Shown here in pieces: positions 1-57,829 of a stretch of 64,000 nt of DNA. The DNA comes from Escherichia coli. Lineage in GTDB: Bacteria > Pseudomonadota > Gammaproteobacteria > Enterobacterales > Enterobacteriaceae. The translations under genes and the position numbers were made by a program. The stretch's first letter is position 1. The number at the start of each line of letters is the position of its first letter. A model generated the notes under the pieces. The model ran no database searches. It saw nothing but the letters and a program-made list of their open reading frames with translations, and was not told the origin of the DNA. The stretch lies in NCBI RefSeq assembly GCF_050920415.1, contig NZ_CP169309.1; one strand, 5' to 3'.

Positions 1-360
1 AACGAAGCCCAGCTGGCGCACTTCCGTCGTATTCTGGAAGCATGGCGTAATCAACTCAGGGATGAAGTCGATCGCACCGTTACACATATGCAGGATGAAG
101 CAGCCAACTTCCCGGATCCGGTAGACCGTGCAGCCCAGGAAGAAGAGTTCAGCCTCGAACTGCGTAACCGCGATCGCGAGCGTAAGCTGATCAAAAAGAT
201 CGAGAAAACGCTGAAAAAAGTGGAAGACGAAGATTTCGGCTACTGCGAATCTTGCGGCGTTGAAATTGGTATTCGTCGTCTGGAAGCGCGCCCGACAGCC
301 GATCTGTGCATCGACTGCAAAACGCTGGCTGAAATTCGCGAAAAACAGATGGCTGGCTAA
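1..360 (+). CDS. dksA: RNA polymerase-binding transcription factor DksA (5' end outside window)
   Basis: Frame 1 reads from base 1 as [19 protein letters not shown]...; ORF track 88..360 ends ...[38 protein letters not shown] with a C-x2-C-x17-C-x2-C zinc finger; stop TAA at 358-360. Confidence 0.95.
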
Positions 361-387
361 TTACAGCCGTTCCATCACGTTTACCAC

Positions 388-417
388 AGGCGGGAAATGC
401 TCCCGCCTTATTTTTTG
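388..417 (+). terminator. Rho-independent terminator after dksA (GC stem aggcggga/tcccgcct followed by T-run)
   Basis: Inverted repeat aggcgggaaatgctcccgcct followed by tattttttg, directly visible in sequence. Confidence 0.7.
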
Positions 418-426
418 TTCAACGAG

Positions 427-1323
427 ATGACAGACACACACTATATTGGTCGCTTCGCCCCCTCTCCTTCTGGCGAGCTTCATTTTGGCTCTCTGATTGC
501 CGCGCTTGGAAGCTTTCTACAGGCTCGCGCCCGGCAAGGTCGCTGGCTTGTTCGCATTGAAGATATCGATCCGCCTCGTGAAGTTCCCGGTGCCGCAGAG
601 ACCATCCTGCGCCAGCTGGAACATTACGGTCTACACTGGGACGGCGATGTTCTCTGGCAATCGCAACGTCACGACGCCTATCGCGAAGCACTCGCATGGT
701 TACATGAGCAAGGGTTAAGTTATTACTGCACCTGCACGCGCGCACGTATTCAAAGCATTGGCGGTATTTACGACGGTCATTGCCGGGAGTTGCATCATGG
801 GCCAGAAAACGCTGCTGTACGTATTCGCCAGCAGCATCCGGTCACCCAGTTTACTGACCAGCTGCGCGGCATTATTCATGCCGACCAAAAACTGGCGCGG
901 GAAGATTTTATTATTCATCGCCGTGATGGTTTATTTGCCTATAACCTGGCGGTGGTCGTTGACGATCACTACCAGGGCGTGACAGAAATTGTCCGTGGCG
1001 CGGATTTGATCGAACCCACGGTGCGCCAAATCTCGCTGTACCAGCTTTTTGGCTGGCAGGTGCCAGATTACATTCATTTGCCACTGGCACTTAATCCACA
1101 AGGCGCTAAACTTTCCAAGCAGAATCATGCGCCTGCGTTGCCAAAAGGCGATCCTCGGCCGGTGTTAATCGCGGCACTTCAATTTCTGGGCCAGCAGGCA
1201 GAAACACACTGGCAGGATTTCAGCGTCGAGCAAATTCTCCAGTCAGCCGTCACAAACTGGACGCTGACTACCATTCCTGACTCGGCAATTGTAAATTCAA
1301 CATTCTCAAATGCGTCATGCTGA
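427..1323 (+). CDS. gluQ: Glutamyl-Q tRNA(Asp) synthetase
   Basis: ORF 397..1323; class I aaRS HIGH-like motif ([12 protein letters not shown]) and GluRS-like catalytic domain without anticodon-binding domain; start placed at in-frame ATG 427 downstream of the terminator hairpin (ORF-track ATG 397 lies inside the hairpin loop). Confidence 0.85.
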
Positions 1324-1382
1324 GCTATGATTAGCCGCTATTTTTTTGTCCTGAATGATGTTTGACACTACCGAGGTGTACT

Positions 1383-2780
1383 ATTTTTACCCGAGTCGCT
1401 AATTTTTGCCGCAAGGTGCTAAGCCGCGAGGAAAGCGAGGCTGAACAGGCAGTCGCCCGTCCACAGGTGACGGTGATCCCGCGTGAGCAGCATGCTATTT
1501 CCCGCAAAGATATCAGTGAAAATGCCCTGAAGGTAATGTACAGGCTCAATAAAGCGGGATACGAAGCCTGGCTGGTTGGCGGCGGCGTACGCGACCTGTT
1601 ACTTGGCAAAAAGCCGAAAGATTTTGACGTGACCACCAACGCCACGCCTGAGCAGGTGCGCAAACTGTTCCGTAACTGCCGCCTGGTGGGTCGCCGTTTC
1701 CGTCTTGCTCATGTCATGTTTGGCCCGGAGATTATCGAAGTTGCGACCTTCCGTGGACATCACGAAGGTAACGTCAGCGACCGCACGACCTCCCAACGCG
1801 GGCAAAACGGCATGTTGCTGCGCGACAACATTTTCGGCTCCATCGAAGAAGACGCCCAACGCCGCGATTTCACTATCAACAGCCTGTATTACAGCGTGGC
1901 AGATTTTACCGTCCGCGATTACGTTGGTGGCATGAAGGATCTGAAAGACGGCGTTATCCGTCTGATTGGTAACCCAGAAACGCGCTACCGTGAAGATCCG
2001 GTACGTATGCTGCGCGCGGTTCGTTTTGCCGCCAAATTGGGCATGCGCATCAGCCCGGAAACCGCAGAACCGATCCCACGCCTGGCAACCTTGCTAAACG
2101 ATATTCCTCCGGCGCGTTTGTTTGAAGAATCTCTGAAACTGTTGCAAGCGGGCTACGGTTACGAAACCTATAAACTGCTGTGTGAATACCATCTGTTCCA
2201 GCCGCTGTTCCCGACCATTACCCGCTACTTTACGGAAAATGGTGACAGTCCAATGGAGCGGATCATTGAGCAGGTGCTGAAGAATACTGACACGCGTATT
2301 CATAACGATATGCGCGTCAACCCGGCGTTCCTGTTTGCCGCCATGTTCTGGTATCCCCTGCTGGAAACAGCACAGAAAATTGCCCAAGAGAGCGGCCTGA
2401 CTTATCACGACGCTTTCGCGCTGGCAATGAACGATGTGTTAGACGAAGCCTGCCGTTCACTGGCGATCCCGAAACGGCTAACCACTTTAACCCGTGATAT
2501 CTGGCAATTACAGTTGCGCATGTCCCGCCGTCAGGGTAAACGCGCATGGAAATTACTCGAACATCCGAAGTTCCGCGCCGCTTATGACCTGCTGGCACTG
2601 CGTGCTGAAGTAGAACGCAACGCCGAGCTACAACGTCTGGCGAAATGGTGGGGTGAGTTCCAGGTTTCCGCGCCGCCAGACCAAAAAGGGATGCTTAACG
2701 AACTGGATGAAGAACCGTCACCGCGTCGTCGTACTCGTCGCCCGCGCAGACGTGCGCCGCGCCGTGAGGGCACCGCATGA
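1383..2780 (+). CDS. pcnB: Poly(A) polymerase I
   Basis: ORF 1362..2780; nucleotidyltransferase motif [17 protein letters not shown] and basic C-terminus; recognised protein begins at the Ile codon ATT 1383 ([11 protein letters not shown]...), consistent with the known non-AUG start of pcnB. Confidence 0.9.
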
Positions 2781-3253
2781 CAGTGGCGTATATTGCCATC
2801 GGCAGCAATCTGGCCTCTCCGCTGGAGCAGGTCAATGCTGCCCTGAAGGCAATAGATGACATTCCTGAAAGCCGCATTCTTGCCGTTTCTTCGTTTTACC
2901 GCACCCCACCGCTGGGGCCGCAAGATCAACCCGATTACTTAAACGCAGCCGTGGCTCTGGAAACCTCTCTTACAGCAGAAGAGCTCCTCAACCACACACA
3001 GCGTATTGAGCTGCAACAGGGTCGTGTCCGCAAAGCTGAACGCTGGGGACCGCGCACGCTCGATCTTGATATCATGTTGTTTGGTAATCAGGTCATAAAC
3101 ACTGAGCGCCTGACCGTTCCGCACTATGATATGAAGAATCGTGGATTTATGTTGTGGCCGCTGTTTGAGATCGCGCCGGAACTCGTGTTTCCTGATGGTG
3201 AAACGTTGCAAGCAAGACTCACTACTTTCCCTCCCAGCCCACAGCACTGGTAA
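2777..3253 (+). CDS. folK: 2-amino-4-hydroxy-6-hydroxymethyldihydropteridine pyrophosphokinase (HPPK)
   Basis: ORF 2777..3253, 158 aa [12 protein letters not shown]...; start overlaps pcnB stop (ATGA). Confidence 0.93.
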
Positions 3254-38808: not shown

Positions 38809-38968
38809 GGGTTATTCCTTATCTATCTAATAACGTTGAGTTTTCTGGAACCTGTCCCATTGAACTCTCGCAGGAAAGCTCAATAAGACAGGTTCTACGT
38901 TTAGTTGCCGCGCTTTTATATGCGCTTGATTTACAACATCTTCTGGATAATTTTTACCAGAAAAATCA

Positions 38969-50186: not shown

Positions 50187-50368
50187 GATGCGACGCTGGC
50201 CTGATAAGACGCGGGCAGCGTCGCATCAGGCATCGTGTGCAAATGTCGGATGCGGCGGGAACGCCTTATCCGACCTGCAAGATCTTTTATATCAACGTGT
50301 TAAAAAATTGTAGGCCTGATAAGACGCGCCAGCGTCGCATCGGGCATCCAGTGTAAATGTTGGATGCC
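50187..50368. repeat. BIME: cluster of 3-4 REP palindromic units
   Basis: Repeated gcctgataagacgcg...cgtcgcatcaggc and gtcggatgcggcg...gccttatccgac units in alternating orientation. Confidence 0.8.
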
Positions 50369-50781: not shown

Positions 50782-50809
50782 AAAAAAGGCGCAGAATCCT
50801 GCGCCTTTT
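50782..50809. terminator. Bidirectional rho-independent terminator between secA and mutT
   Basis: aaaaaa-ggcgcag-aatc-ctgcgcc-tttt. Confidence 0.8.
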
Positions 50810-50826
50810 ACTTCAACTGTTAGCTT

Positions 50827-53532
50827 TTATTGCAGGCGACCGTGGCACTGCTTGTATTTTTTACCAGAACCGCACGGGCAAGGATCATTACGTCCAACTT
50901 TGCGTTCACCAGTTTGTGCCGCCAGTGCAGCTGCGGCTGCAGAGTCGTCATCCTGATGGCTAAGCTGCTGCATTTGCGCTAAACGCTCGGCTTCCATACG
51001 ACGCTGTTGTTCCAGCTCCTCAACCTCTTCAGGCATACGTACCTGAACTTTGCTCAGCGTGCTGATAACTTCATATTTCAACGACTCCAGCATCGCTGCA
51101 AACATGGAGAACGATTCACGTTTGTATTCCTGCTTCGGATCTTTCTGTGCATAGCCACGCAGGTGGATACCTTGACGCAGATAATCCATCGCCGCCAGGT
51201 GCTCTTTCCACAGGGAGTCAAGCGTTTGCAGCATGACGCCTTTCTCGAAGTGACGCATCATCTCAGCGCCAACCACTTCTTCTTTACGCTGATACACTTC
51301 GATGGACTGCGCCAGAATACGCTCACGCAGCGTCTCTTCATGCAGTTCTGGCTCTTTGTCCAGCCACTCGGCAATCGGCAAATCGAGGTCGAAATCGTTC
51401 TTCAGACGTTCCTGCAGCCCCGGAATATCCCACATTTCTTCCAGCGACTGCGGCGGAATGTAGGCATCGATGGTCGCTTTGAACACATCTTCACGAATGC
51501 TGTTGATGGTATCGCTCACATCGCTGACATCCAGCAGTTCATTACGCTGGGAGTAAATGGCGCGACGCTGATCGTTAGCCACGTCATCATATTCCAGCAG
51601 TTGCTTACGAATATCGAAGTTACGGCTTTCAACTTTACGCTGAGCGTTGGCAATCGCTTTGGTCACCCACGGGTGCTCGATGGCTTCGCCTGGTTTCATA
51701 CCCAGTTTACGCATCATGCCGGAAACACGGTCAGAAGCAAAAATACGCATCAGCGCATCTTCCATCGACAGGTAGAAACGGGAAGAACCGGCATCCCCCT
51801 GGCGCCCAGAACGACCGCGTAGCTGGTTATCGATACGACGAGATTCGTGACGTTCTGTACCGATGATATGCAGACCACCTGCAGCCAGTACCGCATCGTG
51901 ACGCACCTGCCAGTCGGCTTTGATTTTTTCAATTTGCTCTGCGGTCGGATTTTCCAGCGCGGCAACTTCTGCCTGCCAGCTACCACCGAGCACAATATCT
52001 GTACCACGACCCGCCATGTTAGTCGCGATAGTCACCGCCGCGGGATAACCCGCTTGTGCAACAATCGCTGCTTCGTTAGCGTGGAATTTGGCGTTCAGAA
52101 CGTTGTGTTTGATACCGGCTTTGGTCAGCTCGTTTGACACCAATTCCGATTTTTCGATGGAGATAGTACCCACCAGCACCGGCTGGCCTTTCGCAGTACG
52201 TTCTTTGATATCTTCAATGATCGCCTGAATTTTTTCCGCTTCAGTCATGTAGACCAGGTCCGGCAGATCTTTACGAATCATTGGACGGTTGGTCGGAACA
52301 ACGACGGTATCCAGCTTATAGATGGAGCTGAATTCGAAAGCTTCGGTATCAGCAGTACCGGTCATCCCCGCCAGTTTTTCATACAGACGGAAGTAGTTCT
52401 GGAAGGTGATCGACGCCAGCGTCTGGTTTTCGTTCTGGATCTGTACACCTTCTTTCGCTTCCACTGCCTGATGCAGGCCATCGGACCAACGACGTCCCTG
52501 CATGGTACGACCGGTGTGTTCGTCAACGATGATAACTTCACCATCTTTAACGATGTAGTCGACGTCTCGGGTAAACAGCGCATGAGCGCGCAGCGCCGCC
52601 GTTACGTGGTGCATCAGCATGATGTTGGCCGGAGAGTACAGAGACTCCCCTTCATCCATGATGCCTTCTTTCACCAGCAGTTCTTCAATCAGCACCAGAC
52701 CACGTTCGGTCAGGTTCACCTGGCGAGATTTTTCGTCCACCGAGAAGTGGCCTTCGCCCTGGAAGGTTTCGGAGTCTTCTTTTTCCTGACGGATCAGGTG
52801 CGGAATAATTTTATTCACGCGTTTATACATTTCCGAGCTGTCTTCTGCCGGGCCGGAAATGATCAGCGGTGTACGCGCTTCATCGATCAGGATGGAGTCC
52901 ACTTCGTCCACCAGCGCATAGTGCAGTTTACGCTGTACACGTTCTTCAGGGCTGAACGCCATGTTATCGCGCAGGTAGTCAAAGCCGTATTCGTTGTTCG
53001 TACCGTAAGTGATGTCAGCTGCGTAAGCTTCACGCTTCGCCGGTGCTGGCATGCCCGGCAGGTTGATACCGACAGTCAGGCCAAGGAATTCAAACAGCGG
53101 ACGGTTGTTTTCGGCGTCACGTTGCGCCAGGTAGTCGTTGACGGTAACAACGTGTACGCCCTTACCGGTTAATGCGTTCAGGTAAGCAGGCAGCGTTGCG
53201 GTCAGGGTTTTACCTTCACCGGTACGCATTTCCGCGATGCAGCGTTCGTTAAGAACCATACCGCCGAGTAACTGAACGTCGAAGTGACGCATACCAAAGA
53301 CGCGCTTACTTGCCTCACGCACCACAGCGAAAGCTTCTGGGATCAGATTTTCCAGCACTTCGCCTTTTTCCAGACGTGCACGAAACTCTGCGGTTTTCCC
53401 TTTCAGTTCTTCGTCGGAGAGTTTTTCCATCTCCGGTTCCATGGCATTGATGATGTTGACGACTTTGCGCATCCGGCGCAGGGTGCGATCGTTACGACTA
53501 CCGAAAACTTTAGTTAATAATTTGATTAGCAT
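50827..53532 (-). CDS. secA: Protein translocase ATPase SecA
   Basis: ORF 901 aa [23 protein letters not shown]...; C-terminal zinc-binding [14 protein letters not shown]. Confidence 0.97.
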
Positions 53533-55354: not shown

Positions 55355-56506
55355 TTAATCAGCTTGCTTACGCAGGAATGCTGGGATATCCAGATAATCC
55401 GGCTCTTTCGCAGTTTGCGGTGCGTTGTCATTCACGACTTTAGCAACCGGTTTCTGCTCCTGAGTCAGCGGTGCCATCCCGTGCTGCTGGTAGCGATCCA
55501 TCACTGGCTGCTGAACCTGCTTATTGGTCACCAGGGTGATTTCAGGACGTTTGTCCATACCGATACCTGTCGCAACAACGGTTACGCGCAGCTCGTCATT
55601 CATATCCGGGTCAAGAGAAGTACCGATAACCACAGTTGCGTTGTCGGATGCAAATGCACGGATGGTGTTACCTACCGTTTCGAACTCATCCAGACGCAGG
55701 TCGAAGCCCGCCGTGATGTTAACCAGCACGCCGCGCGCGCCAGACAGATCGATATCTTCCAGCAGCGGAGAGGAGATAGCCATTTCAGCAGCTTCTTCCG
55801 CACGGTCTTCGCCGCTCGCCACACCAGAACCCATCATTGCGTAGCCCATTTCAGACATTACGGTACGTACGTCTGCAAAGTCCACGTTCATCAGGCCTGG
55901 ACGAGTAATCAGTTCAGCGATACCTTGCACAGCACCTTTCAGTACATCGTTCGCTGCGCCAAATGCATCCAGCAGGGAGATACCGCGGCCCAAGACTTTC
56001 AGCAGTTTGTCGTTAGGGATAGTGATCAGAGAGTCCACATGCTTGGACAGTTCAGTGATCCCCTGCTCAGCGAATGCCATACGCTTCTTGCCTTCAAAGT
56101 TGAAAGGCTTAGTCACGACAGCAACGGTCAGGATCCCCAAATCTTTTGCCACTTCAGCGACAACTGGTGCTGCACCTGTACCGGTACCACCACCCATACC
56201 CGCAGCAATAAAGACCATGTCTGCACCTTCCAGCGCCGCACGCAGTGCATCGCGATCCTCATCAGCCGCATTACGGCCAACTTCTGGATTTGCGCCAGCT
56301 CCCAGTCCTTTGGTGATACCGCTACCGATTTGAATCGTCTGTCCAACCGCTGTTTTACGCAGCGCTTGTGCATCGGTATTTACCGCGAAGAATTCAACAC
56401 CTTCAATGCGCTCGCGCACCATGTGTTCAACAGCATTACCGCCGCCGCCGCCGACGCCGATGACTTTAATCACCGCGTCATTGGTAAGTTCCATTGGTTC
56501 AAACAT
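55355..56506 (-). CDS. ftsZ: Cell division GTPase FtsZ
   Basis: ORF 383 aa; tubulin signature GGGTGTG. Confidence 0.98.
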
Positions 56507-56566
56507 AGTTTCTCTCCGATTTGTGCCTGTCGCCTGAGGCCGTAATCATCGTCGGCCTCATAAAAA

Positions 56567-57829
56567 TTAAAACTCTTTTCGCAGCCAACTATTGAGTCGC
56601 TTGATCCACGAGCCAACTGATGCTGTAACACGTTTTTCTACTTCAGCTTCACCGTTAAGATGTGACTCTTTCCCATAGTGAAGCAATCCCACCGCCGTCG
56701 AATAATACGGCTCCTGAGCATAATCCGTTAAACCGGTAATGTTCAGCGGCGCGCCGATACGCACTTGCGTATGAAACACGCGCTGAGCACAGGCTGCAAG
56801 ACCTTCGATCTGCGCTGCGCCACCAGTTAAAACAATGCCTGCCGCCAGGTGATGTTTAACCCCTTGTTGGCGAAGCTTTTCCTGCAACTGCAATATCTCT
56901 TCGTTGACCAGGTTGAGCAGCTCGGTATAGCGCGGCTCGATCACCTCTGCCAGGGTCTGACGTTGCAGACTCCGCGGTGGACGACCGCCTACGCTCGGCA
57001 CTTCCACGCTCTCATCTTTTCCAACGATGGAACCCAGCGCACAACCGTGGCGAACTTTAATCGCTTCGGCGTCGCTTGGCGGCGTGCCAAAGGCGTAAGC
57101 GATATCACTGGTCACGACATTGCCAGCATAAGGAATTACCTTAGTGTGGCGCAATGCCCCACCGGTATAAACGGCGATATCCATTGTACCACCACCGATA
57201 TCGACGACGCAGACACCCAGTTCACGTTCATCTTCCGTCAATACCGAATAACTTGATGCCAGTCCGGCAAATATCAGTTGGTCAACTTTCAGCCCACAAC
57301 GTTCAACCGCTTTGACGATGTTTTTCGCCATATCGTTGTGACATGTGATCAGATGCACTTTTGCCTGCATCCGCACGCCCGAAAGTCCTACCGGATTCTT
57401 GATCCCTTCCTGATAGTCAATCGCATACTCTTGCGGGATCACATGCAGCACACGATGCTCATCGCGCACACGCACTGATTTCGCGGTATGGACGACGTTT
57501 TCCACATCTTCTTGCGTCACTTCTTCTTCAGAAATAGGCACCATACCAATTTCATTCTGGCAGCTGATGTGCTTACCAGAAAGCGCCAGATATACCGAAG
57601 AGATCTGACAATCTGCCATCAATTCTGCCTGGTCAATGGCGCGTTGTACGCACTTGACCACGGATTCGAGGTCGTTTACCCCGCCTTTATCCATACCACG
57701 CGACGGGCAGCTGCCCACGCCAATGATATTGACCATACCGTCGGGCAGAACTTCCCCTACTAAAGCGGCAACCTTCGCGGTACCAATCTCCAGTCCTACT
57801 ACCAGTTTTCTGTCCGTCGCCTTGATCAT
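56567..57829 (-). CDS. ftsA: Cell division protein FtsA (actin-like ATPase)
   Basis: ORF 420 aa [26 protein letters not shown]... Confidence 0.97.

Follow-up and report, generated by a model that had tools for sequence, protein, structure and literature searches.

The dksA–gluQ-rs locus of Shigella flexneri 2457T was studied directly by Caballero et al. (2012, BMC Microbiol 12:226, PMC3542578) and provides the closest described counterpart of the element analysed here. RT-PCR detected a dksA–gluQ-rs co-transcript, and a lacZ fusion carrying dksA coding and intergenic sequence without the dksA promoters gave only baseline activity, indicating that gluQ-rs lacks a separate promoter. Removal of the intergenic region raised reporter activity ~10-fold, and mutations that disrupt a predicted stem raised it >2-fold. 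The predicted hairpin has a free energy of –14.7 kcal/mol and carries the first AUG of the gene ‘on the bulge’; a second AUG was noted to lack an obvious Shine-Dalgarno sequence. As analogous leaky terminators within operons, sited directly ahead of a weakly translated gene, the authors named the one before dnaG in rpsU-dnaG-rpoD and read-through from recA to recX (PMC3542578). These systems involve other genes and other sequences, and the likeness comes from the paper’s discussion and general knowledge.

In Escherichia coli K-12, the Term-seq data of Adams et al. (2021, eLife 10:e62438, PMC7815308) show a dominant 3′ end at 160097(–), with ~3.1 million reads in LB at OD 0.4 and ~255,000 on a second condition tab; the file holds three gluQ entries, which fits one per condition. 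The Rho score of this end, 1.16 (‘No’), and its intrinsic-terminator score, 7.47 (values >3 predict intrinsic termination), class it as Rho-independent and intrinsic, and DirectRNA-seq coverage drops from 250 reads upstream to 62 downstream in 800-nt windows, a ~4-fold fall (PMC7815308). In the portion of Conway et al. 2014 (PMC4161252) that deals with ligT-sfsA-dksA-yadB-pcnB-folK, an internal terminator creates a dksA-specific transcription unit. A leaky terminator between dksA and gluQ is thus already known from the Shigella experiments and K-12 3′-end mapping; our literature search found no follow-up study of the gluQ-rs terminator.

The stretch of E. coli DNA analysed here (hereafter the window) is 64,000 nt long, and positions 1–1500 are its dksA (3′ part)–gluQ–pcnB region. 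All features of the junction lie on the plus strand. The 3′ part of dksA (1..360), cut by the window edge, ends with the stop codon TAA at 358–360, as given by the RefSeq annotation of an identical record and the ORF listing. It is followed by a 27-nt spacer (361..387), delimited from the sequence and from the upstream regions of 80 loci, and then by a terminator hairpin and its U-tract. The coding sequence of gluQ (gluQRS), at 427..1323, encodes 298 aa according to PGAP, alignment to the crystallised protein and the conserved ATG 427. NZ_CP169399.1 is 100% identical to the window over 1–1500, and this region has matches in 5,424 of the 5,426 complete E. coli genomes.

The window and S. flexneri 2457T share the same locus and the same element. 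The window encodes MTDTH... where Shigella and K-12 encode MTDTQ..., and has C where K-12 has A at 424, but these are strain-level differences only. The 61-nt sequence printed by Adams et al. around the K-12 end is identical to window 362–422 (PMC7815308), and K-12 160097 aligns with window 412, the fourth base past the stem, with 100 of 101 surrounding bases identical. Adams et al. classed this end as ‘internal’ to gluQ because the K-12 annotation uses a 308-aa start; with the 298-aa start, it becomes the 3′ end of dksA in the gluQ 5′ leader. The published experiments cover the reporter effect, the lack of a separate promoter, the co-transcript, the protein N-terminus, the position of the 3′ end and its Rho independence; they were performed in S. 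flexneri and K-12 and are applied to the window strain by near-identity. To these, we add observations on structure, on conservation, on what becomes of the loop ATG in relatives and on the absence of a Shine-Dalgarno sequence.

Over the 1.5-kb dksA–gluQ–pcnB stretch, most E. coli genomes (4,261 records) share only 90–95% identity with the window, whereas the 69-nt intergenic piece at 361–429 has at least 95% identity in all 5,423 E. coli records. Judged from these identities, the divergence of the window’s lineage would therefore sit in coding parts, mainly gluQ and pcnB, with the terminator region appearing nearly fixed.

Several other features of the window were recorded. The annotated start of pcnB is ATT at 1383–1385, with a GAGG Shine-Dalgarno sequence upstream, and we take it to be the non-canonical AUU initiation codon known for poly(A) polymerase I. 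A comparison with NZ_CP169399.1, 99.97–99.99% identical elsewhere, shows a ~1,277-bp insertion in the window at 21925–23200, between gcd and cueO. The inserted segment codes for an IS110-family transposase (Pfam DEDD_Tnp_IS110, E = 3.6e-25) with a broken frame, its N-terminal part forming a 215-aa ORF at 22361–23008(–) and its C-terminal part lying in another frame at 22030–22260(–). In size and protein start, it presumably resembles IS621. Gathering-level Rfam matches occur for tp2 at 38811–38924(+), naRNA4 (CssrE) at 50198–50275(–), STnc40 at 50782–50851(–) and PssrA at 56498–56587(–), all unrelated to the terminator. The only sigma-70-like promoter match in 1–3000, TTCTCA-17-TATGAT at 1303–1331, overlaps the end of gluQ and predicts a start near 1338, which, via the K-12 coordinate offset, matches the secondary pcnB-folK promoter S-159171 listed in the operon data of Conway et al. 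(PMC4161252).

The terminator hairpin and its conservation

The initial annotation had placed a strong hairpin and T-run 28 bp after the dksA stop, and the first hairpin base (388) is indeed the 28th base past the TAA. The hairpin (388..408), identified from sequence, folding and conservation, comprises AGGCGGGA at 388–395, the loop AATGC at 396–400 and TCCCGCCT at 401–408, giving a stem of 8 bp, six of them G-C, closed by a 5-nt loop. Directly 3′ of the stem lies the T-rich tract TATTTTTTGT (409..418), with T at eight of ten positions; this terminator U-tract contains position 412, the equivalent of the K-12 Term-seq end. A scan with a terminator pattern picks out the 388–418 site (8 pairs, 6 G-C), but the pattern is not enriched, with 3 sites found in the 3 kb scanned vs 3.5 expected from shuffled sequence. 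The scan being no better than chance, the pattern alone carries no weight.

Folding is more discriminating. The segment 355–440 has a z-score of –4.16, and none of 200 shuffled sequences folds as well. For the hairpin alone, we compute –14.5 to –15.1 kcal/mol, matching the published S. flexneri value, and its pair probabilities are 0.85–1.0 in all contexts tried, with transcripts beginning at 88, 200, 300 or 340. In the minimum-free-energy fold, 369–382 also pairs with 419–435, which would mask AUG 427; we set this long-range pairing aside because the flanks involved lack conservation beyond Escherichia.

Taking one genome per species, our scan yielded 80 Enterobacteriaceae gluQ loci. In nearly all 80, dksA lies directly upstream of gluQ. 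In 79 of the 80 loci, gluQ is closely preceded by a hairpin of the form GGCGGG(A/G)(G)-loop-(C)(T/C)CCCGCC; the remaining locus is cut off by the end of its contig. Divergence is free in the spacer ahead of the hairpin, in the loop and in the tail. When 67 distinct orthologous sequences are aligned, the six core G-C pairs (GGCGGG/CCCGCC) are invariant in all 67, and the next inner pair (13–20) is never broken, occurring as A-U in 61 sequences, G-C in four and G-U in two. The outer stem pairs vary among A-U, U-A, C-G and G-U. Overall, 86% of stem cells pair, as compared with 50–60% in slid controls, and RNAalifold independently recovers the same stem. Conservation of the stem is thus very strong. 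True covariation support is modest in this alignment, because the invariant core contributes none; it comes only from the outer and innermost pairs, with compensatory swaps at the ends of the stem.

Escherichia and Kluyvera have a strong U-tract; that of Enterobacter-type loci is poor, with the tail GTTACCGTTGAT and a gluQ start codon only 10–12 nt past the stem. Given this U-poor tail, termination strength probably differs between genera.

Palindromic or repeat-like insertions were also observed upstream of gluQ in some Citrobacter, Kosakonia, Entomohabitans and Buttiauxella genomes, and the hairpin is retained in all of them. The loci with extra insertions (L014, L016, L017, L034, L035, L041, L068, L071 and L079) carry them upstream of locus position 1501. 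In most cases, the inserted sequence separates the dksA stop from the conserved hairpin; in L071, it instead follows the hairpin and precedes gluQ, which is 87 nt downstream.

In its stem, its U-tract, its mapped 3′ end and its conservation, the 388–408 hairpin with its U-tract has the properties of a Rho-independent terminator. The 27-nt spacer, poorly conserved between genera among the 80 loci, would suffice to keep a ribosome terminating on dksA off the stem.

Regulation, promoters and RNA processing

The explanation that best survives alongside passive termination is a regulated attenuator, in which a protein, a small RNA or DksA/ppGpp acting via RNA polymerase would tune read-through with growth phase or stress. 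We consider it unlikely. In S. flexneri, an intergenic RT-PCR product rose ~20-fold in stationary phase vs 1.3-fold for the dksA and gluQ-rs amplicons, and Caballero et al. left a riboswitch-like circuit or a terminator-binding protein possible (PMC3542578). A purely passive terminator does not account for the published 20-fold rise, although the RT-PCR was semi-quantitative and read from gel bands. The invariant GGCGGG/CCCGCC core, set among diverging flanks and loops, is also compatible with a sequence-specific constraint, but an ordinary terminator would likewise be expected to show strong purifying selection on a short G-C stem.

Other observations argue against an attenuator. Opening the 3′ arm of the hairpin costs 8–13 kcal/mol in all contexts tried, and hence there is no competing antiterminator fold. 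The spacer upstream of the hairpin is unconserved between genera, and we find neither a competing structure nor a ligand domain of the kind that defines a riboswitch or attenuator. No Rfam family matches the dksA–gluQ terminator region, either at gathering thresholds or at E-values up to 10, and the riboswitch search of Caballero et al. was negative (PMC3542578). A factor that reads the stem sequence is nonetheless conceivable, because the core is invariant and a growth-phase change of the intergenic transcript has been reported. Such a factor could set the level of read-through and couple GluQ-RS synthesis to the stringent or osmotic-stress state, a prospect to which we assign the same low probability as to the attenuator.

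Less probable still is a promoter of gluQ’s own in dksA or the spacer, such as the sigma-24 site that RegulonDB predicts, which would make read-through irrelevant. That site is listed for E. coli gluQ-rs in the discussion of Caballero et al. as a prediction only (PMC3542578), and our consensus scan covered promoters of the sigma-70 type. The scan returned no sigma-70-like site in 1–1302, however, and the S. flexneri fusion without the dksA promoters stayed at baseline β-galactosidase (PMC3542578). Moreover, the operon description in Conway et al., as far as it concerns these genes, gives internal dksA and secondary pcnB-folK promoters and mentions none for yadB (PMC4161252).

The 3′ end at 412 could alternatively reflect a processing or stability element at which a 3′ exonuclease stalls on longer transcripts, rather than termination. 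Only 4 nt separate the mapped end from the stem, as is typical of trimmed ends; this is shorter than in the usual nascent product of intrinsic termination, and some 3′ trimming must be assumed. Trimming after termination, however, accounts equally well for the short tail. By contrast with what is observed, an element that stabilizes the upstream RNA would not raise a downstream transcriptional reporter when the hairpin is removed or weakened (PMC3542578). The U-tract, the intrinsic score of 7.47 and the ~4-fold fall in coverage across the site also fit termination (PMC7815308), leaving stalling a very improbable source of this end, slightly more so than a separate promoter.

The initial annotation proposed that gluQ is expressed by terminator read-through, and this proposal is now well supported by the published reporters, the co-transcript, the K-12 3′ end and the fall in coverage. 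A lack of transcript 3′ ends near ~417 would have spoken against it, and the mapped K-12 end, at the equivalent of 412, leaves the proposal standing; fusions with and without the hairpin were suggested, and those made in S. flexneri differ ~10-fold for the deletion and >2-fold for the stem mutants.

The start codon of gluQ

An in-frame upstream ATG (397..399), noted in the initial annotation, does lie inside the hairpin loop (396–400) and opens the long ORF 397..1323, of 308 aa. It is the mechanical ORF start and the annotated K-12 start, but does not function as the start. The in-frame ATG 427 lies 30 nt further downstream, and the earlier suggestion that translation begins there is upheld by N-terminal sequencing, 298-aa crystal chains, PGAP and the fate of the loop ATG in relatives. 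GluQ-RS of S. flexneri begins TDTQYIGRFAP, after the second Met, giving 298 aa (PMC3542578). Crystallised YadB/GluQ-RS (1nzj/4a91) matches with E = 4e-200, chain residues 1–298 aligning to residues 11–308 of the long ORF, and identifies the downstream gene as GluQ-RS/YadB, with a class I HIGH-region motif near the N-terminus. PGAP starts the 298-aa form at 427 in every RefSeq record examined, and the K-12 reference, NC_000913.3, still annotates gluQ with 927 nt and 308 aa. Our literature search found no start-site profiling (retapamulin) of gluQ.

The position equivalent to 427 is ATG in all 75 loci where it is directly readable. The loop ATG is confined to some Escherichia, namely the window, K-12, E. 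albertii and two other Escherichia species. In E. whittamii, the loop is AATAC, and ATA replaces the loop ATG. A 1-nt deletion in the T-run of Escherichia sp. MOD1-EC7003 shifts the loop ATG into another frame, where it would encode MLPPYF*. These two genomes serve as natural ‘mutants’ that independently confirm the start codon. A 1-nt intergenic deletion in the E. coli strain SCU-111, considered as a further frame test, lies upstream of the hairpin and is uninformative on frame.

A start at ATG 397 is the least credible alternative and is already largely refuted: this codon is in frame, follows the Shine-Dalgarno-like AGGCGGGA (duplex –6.3 kcal/mol) and has the NC_000913.3 annotation in its favour, but the sequenced N-terminus follows the second Met (PMC3542578), codon and Shine-Dalgarno-like sequence are both buried in a –14.5 kcal/mol hairpin, the crystallised protein and all non-Escherichia orthologues lack the 10-residue extension, PGAP uses 427, and E. 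whittamii has ATA at this codon while MOD1-EC7003 has the ATG out of frame, with a stop after six codons. A minor 308-aa form is formally possible, because N-terminal sequencing used a T7-driven overexpression construct and only the predominant band (PMC3542578).

The functional start at 427 has no Shine-Dalgarno sequence. In the 20 nt before ATG 427, the best anti-Shine-Dalgarno duplex is –1.8 kcal/mol, the weakest among 43 neighbouring annotated genes (median –6.0). The Shine-Dalgarno sequence is likewise absent across the family, none of 75 orthologous gluQ starts reaching –6 kcal/mol and the median being +0.4. The leader before ATG 427 is 70% A/U, and the U-tract could possibly act as a ribosome-loading (S1) site for this Shine-Dalgarno-less start.

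Two features of the reading frames at the junction were also recorded. A single frame is common to dksA, the spacer and gluQ, with no stop codon in 361–426, and ATGA at 427–430 combines the gluQ ATG with a TGA from another frame. Both are probably chance. A DksA–GluQ fusion produced by stop-codon read-through was considered and set aside, as 22 codons would stay open by chance about one time in three and nothing else supports it. Translational coupling, or an upstream ORF ending at TGA 428–430, was rejected because that frame has no ATG, GTG or TTG in 361–427; its only ORF starts at 260, within dksA, in a frame other than that of dksA.

Leaky termination and the supply of GluQ-RS

The evidence fits a model in which a leaky terminator separates dksA from gluQ, and we hold this model, with termination, a gluQ mRNA made only by read-through, a hairpin-masked ATG 397 and a start at 427, with high confidence. 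The Rho-independent terminator formed by 388–408 and its U-tract ends most transcripts from the dksA promoters just past dksA. The minority of polymerases that read through, ~10–25% as estimated from published numbers, provide the only gluQ mRNA and continue toward pcnB-folK. On this mRNA, the hairpin would re-form and bury ATG 397 together with its Shine-Dalgarno-like AGGCGGGA, a masking role to which structure, conservation and the N-terminal sequence all point. Ribosomes would then start inefficiently at 427 on an A/U-rich, Shine-Dalgarno-less leader, yielding a scarce 298-aa glutamyl-Q tRNA(Asp) synthetase. Weak translation of this kind may itself help to keep GluQ-RS scarce.

With respect to annotation, the longest-ORF rule mis-calls the gluQ start, and the K-12 reference needs correction. 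Given that the terminator was already described, the result has little significance beyond such annotation hygiene. More broadly, our comparison carries what had been published for a few species over to about 80 species of Enterobacteriaceae, and the element explains how abundant DksA and scarce GluQ-RS can be produced from one set of promoters.
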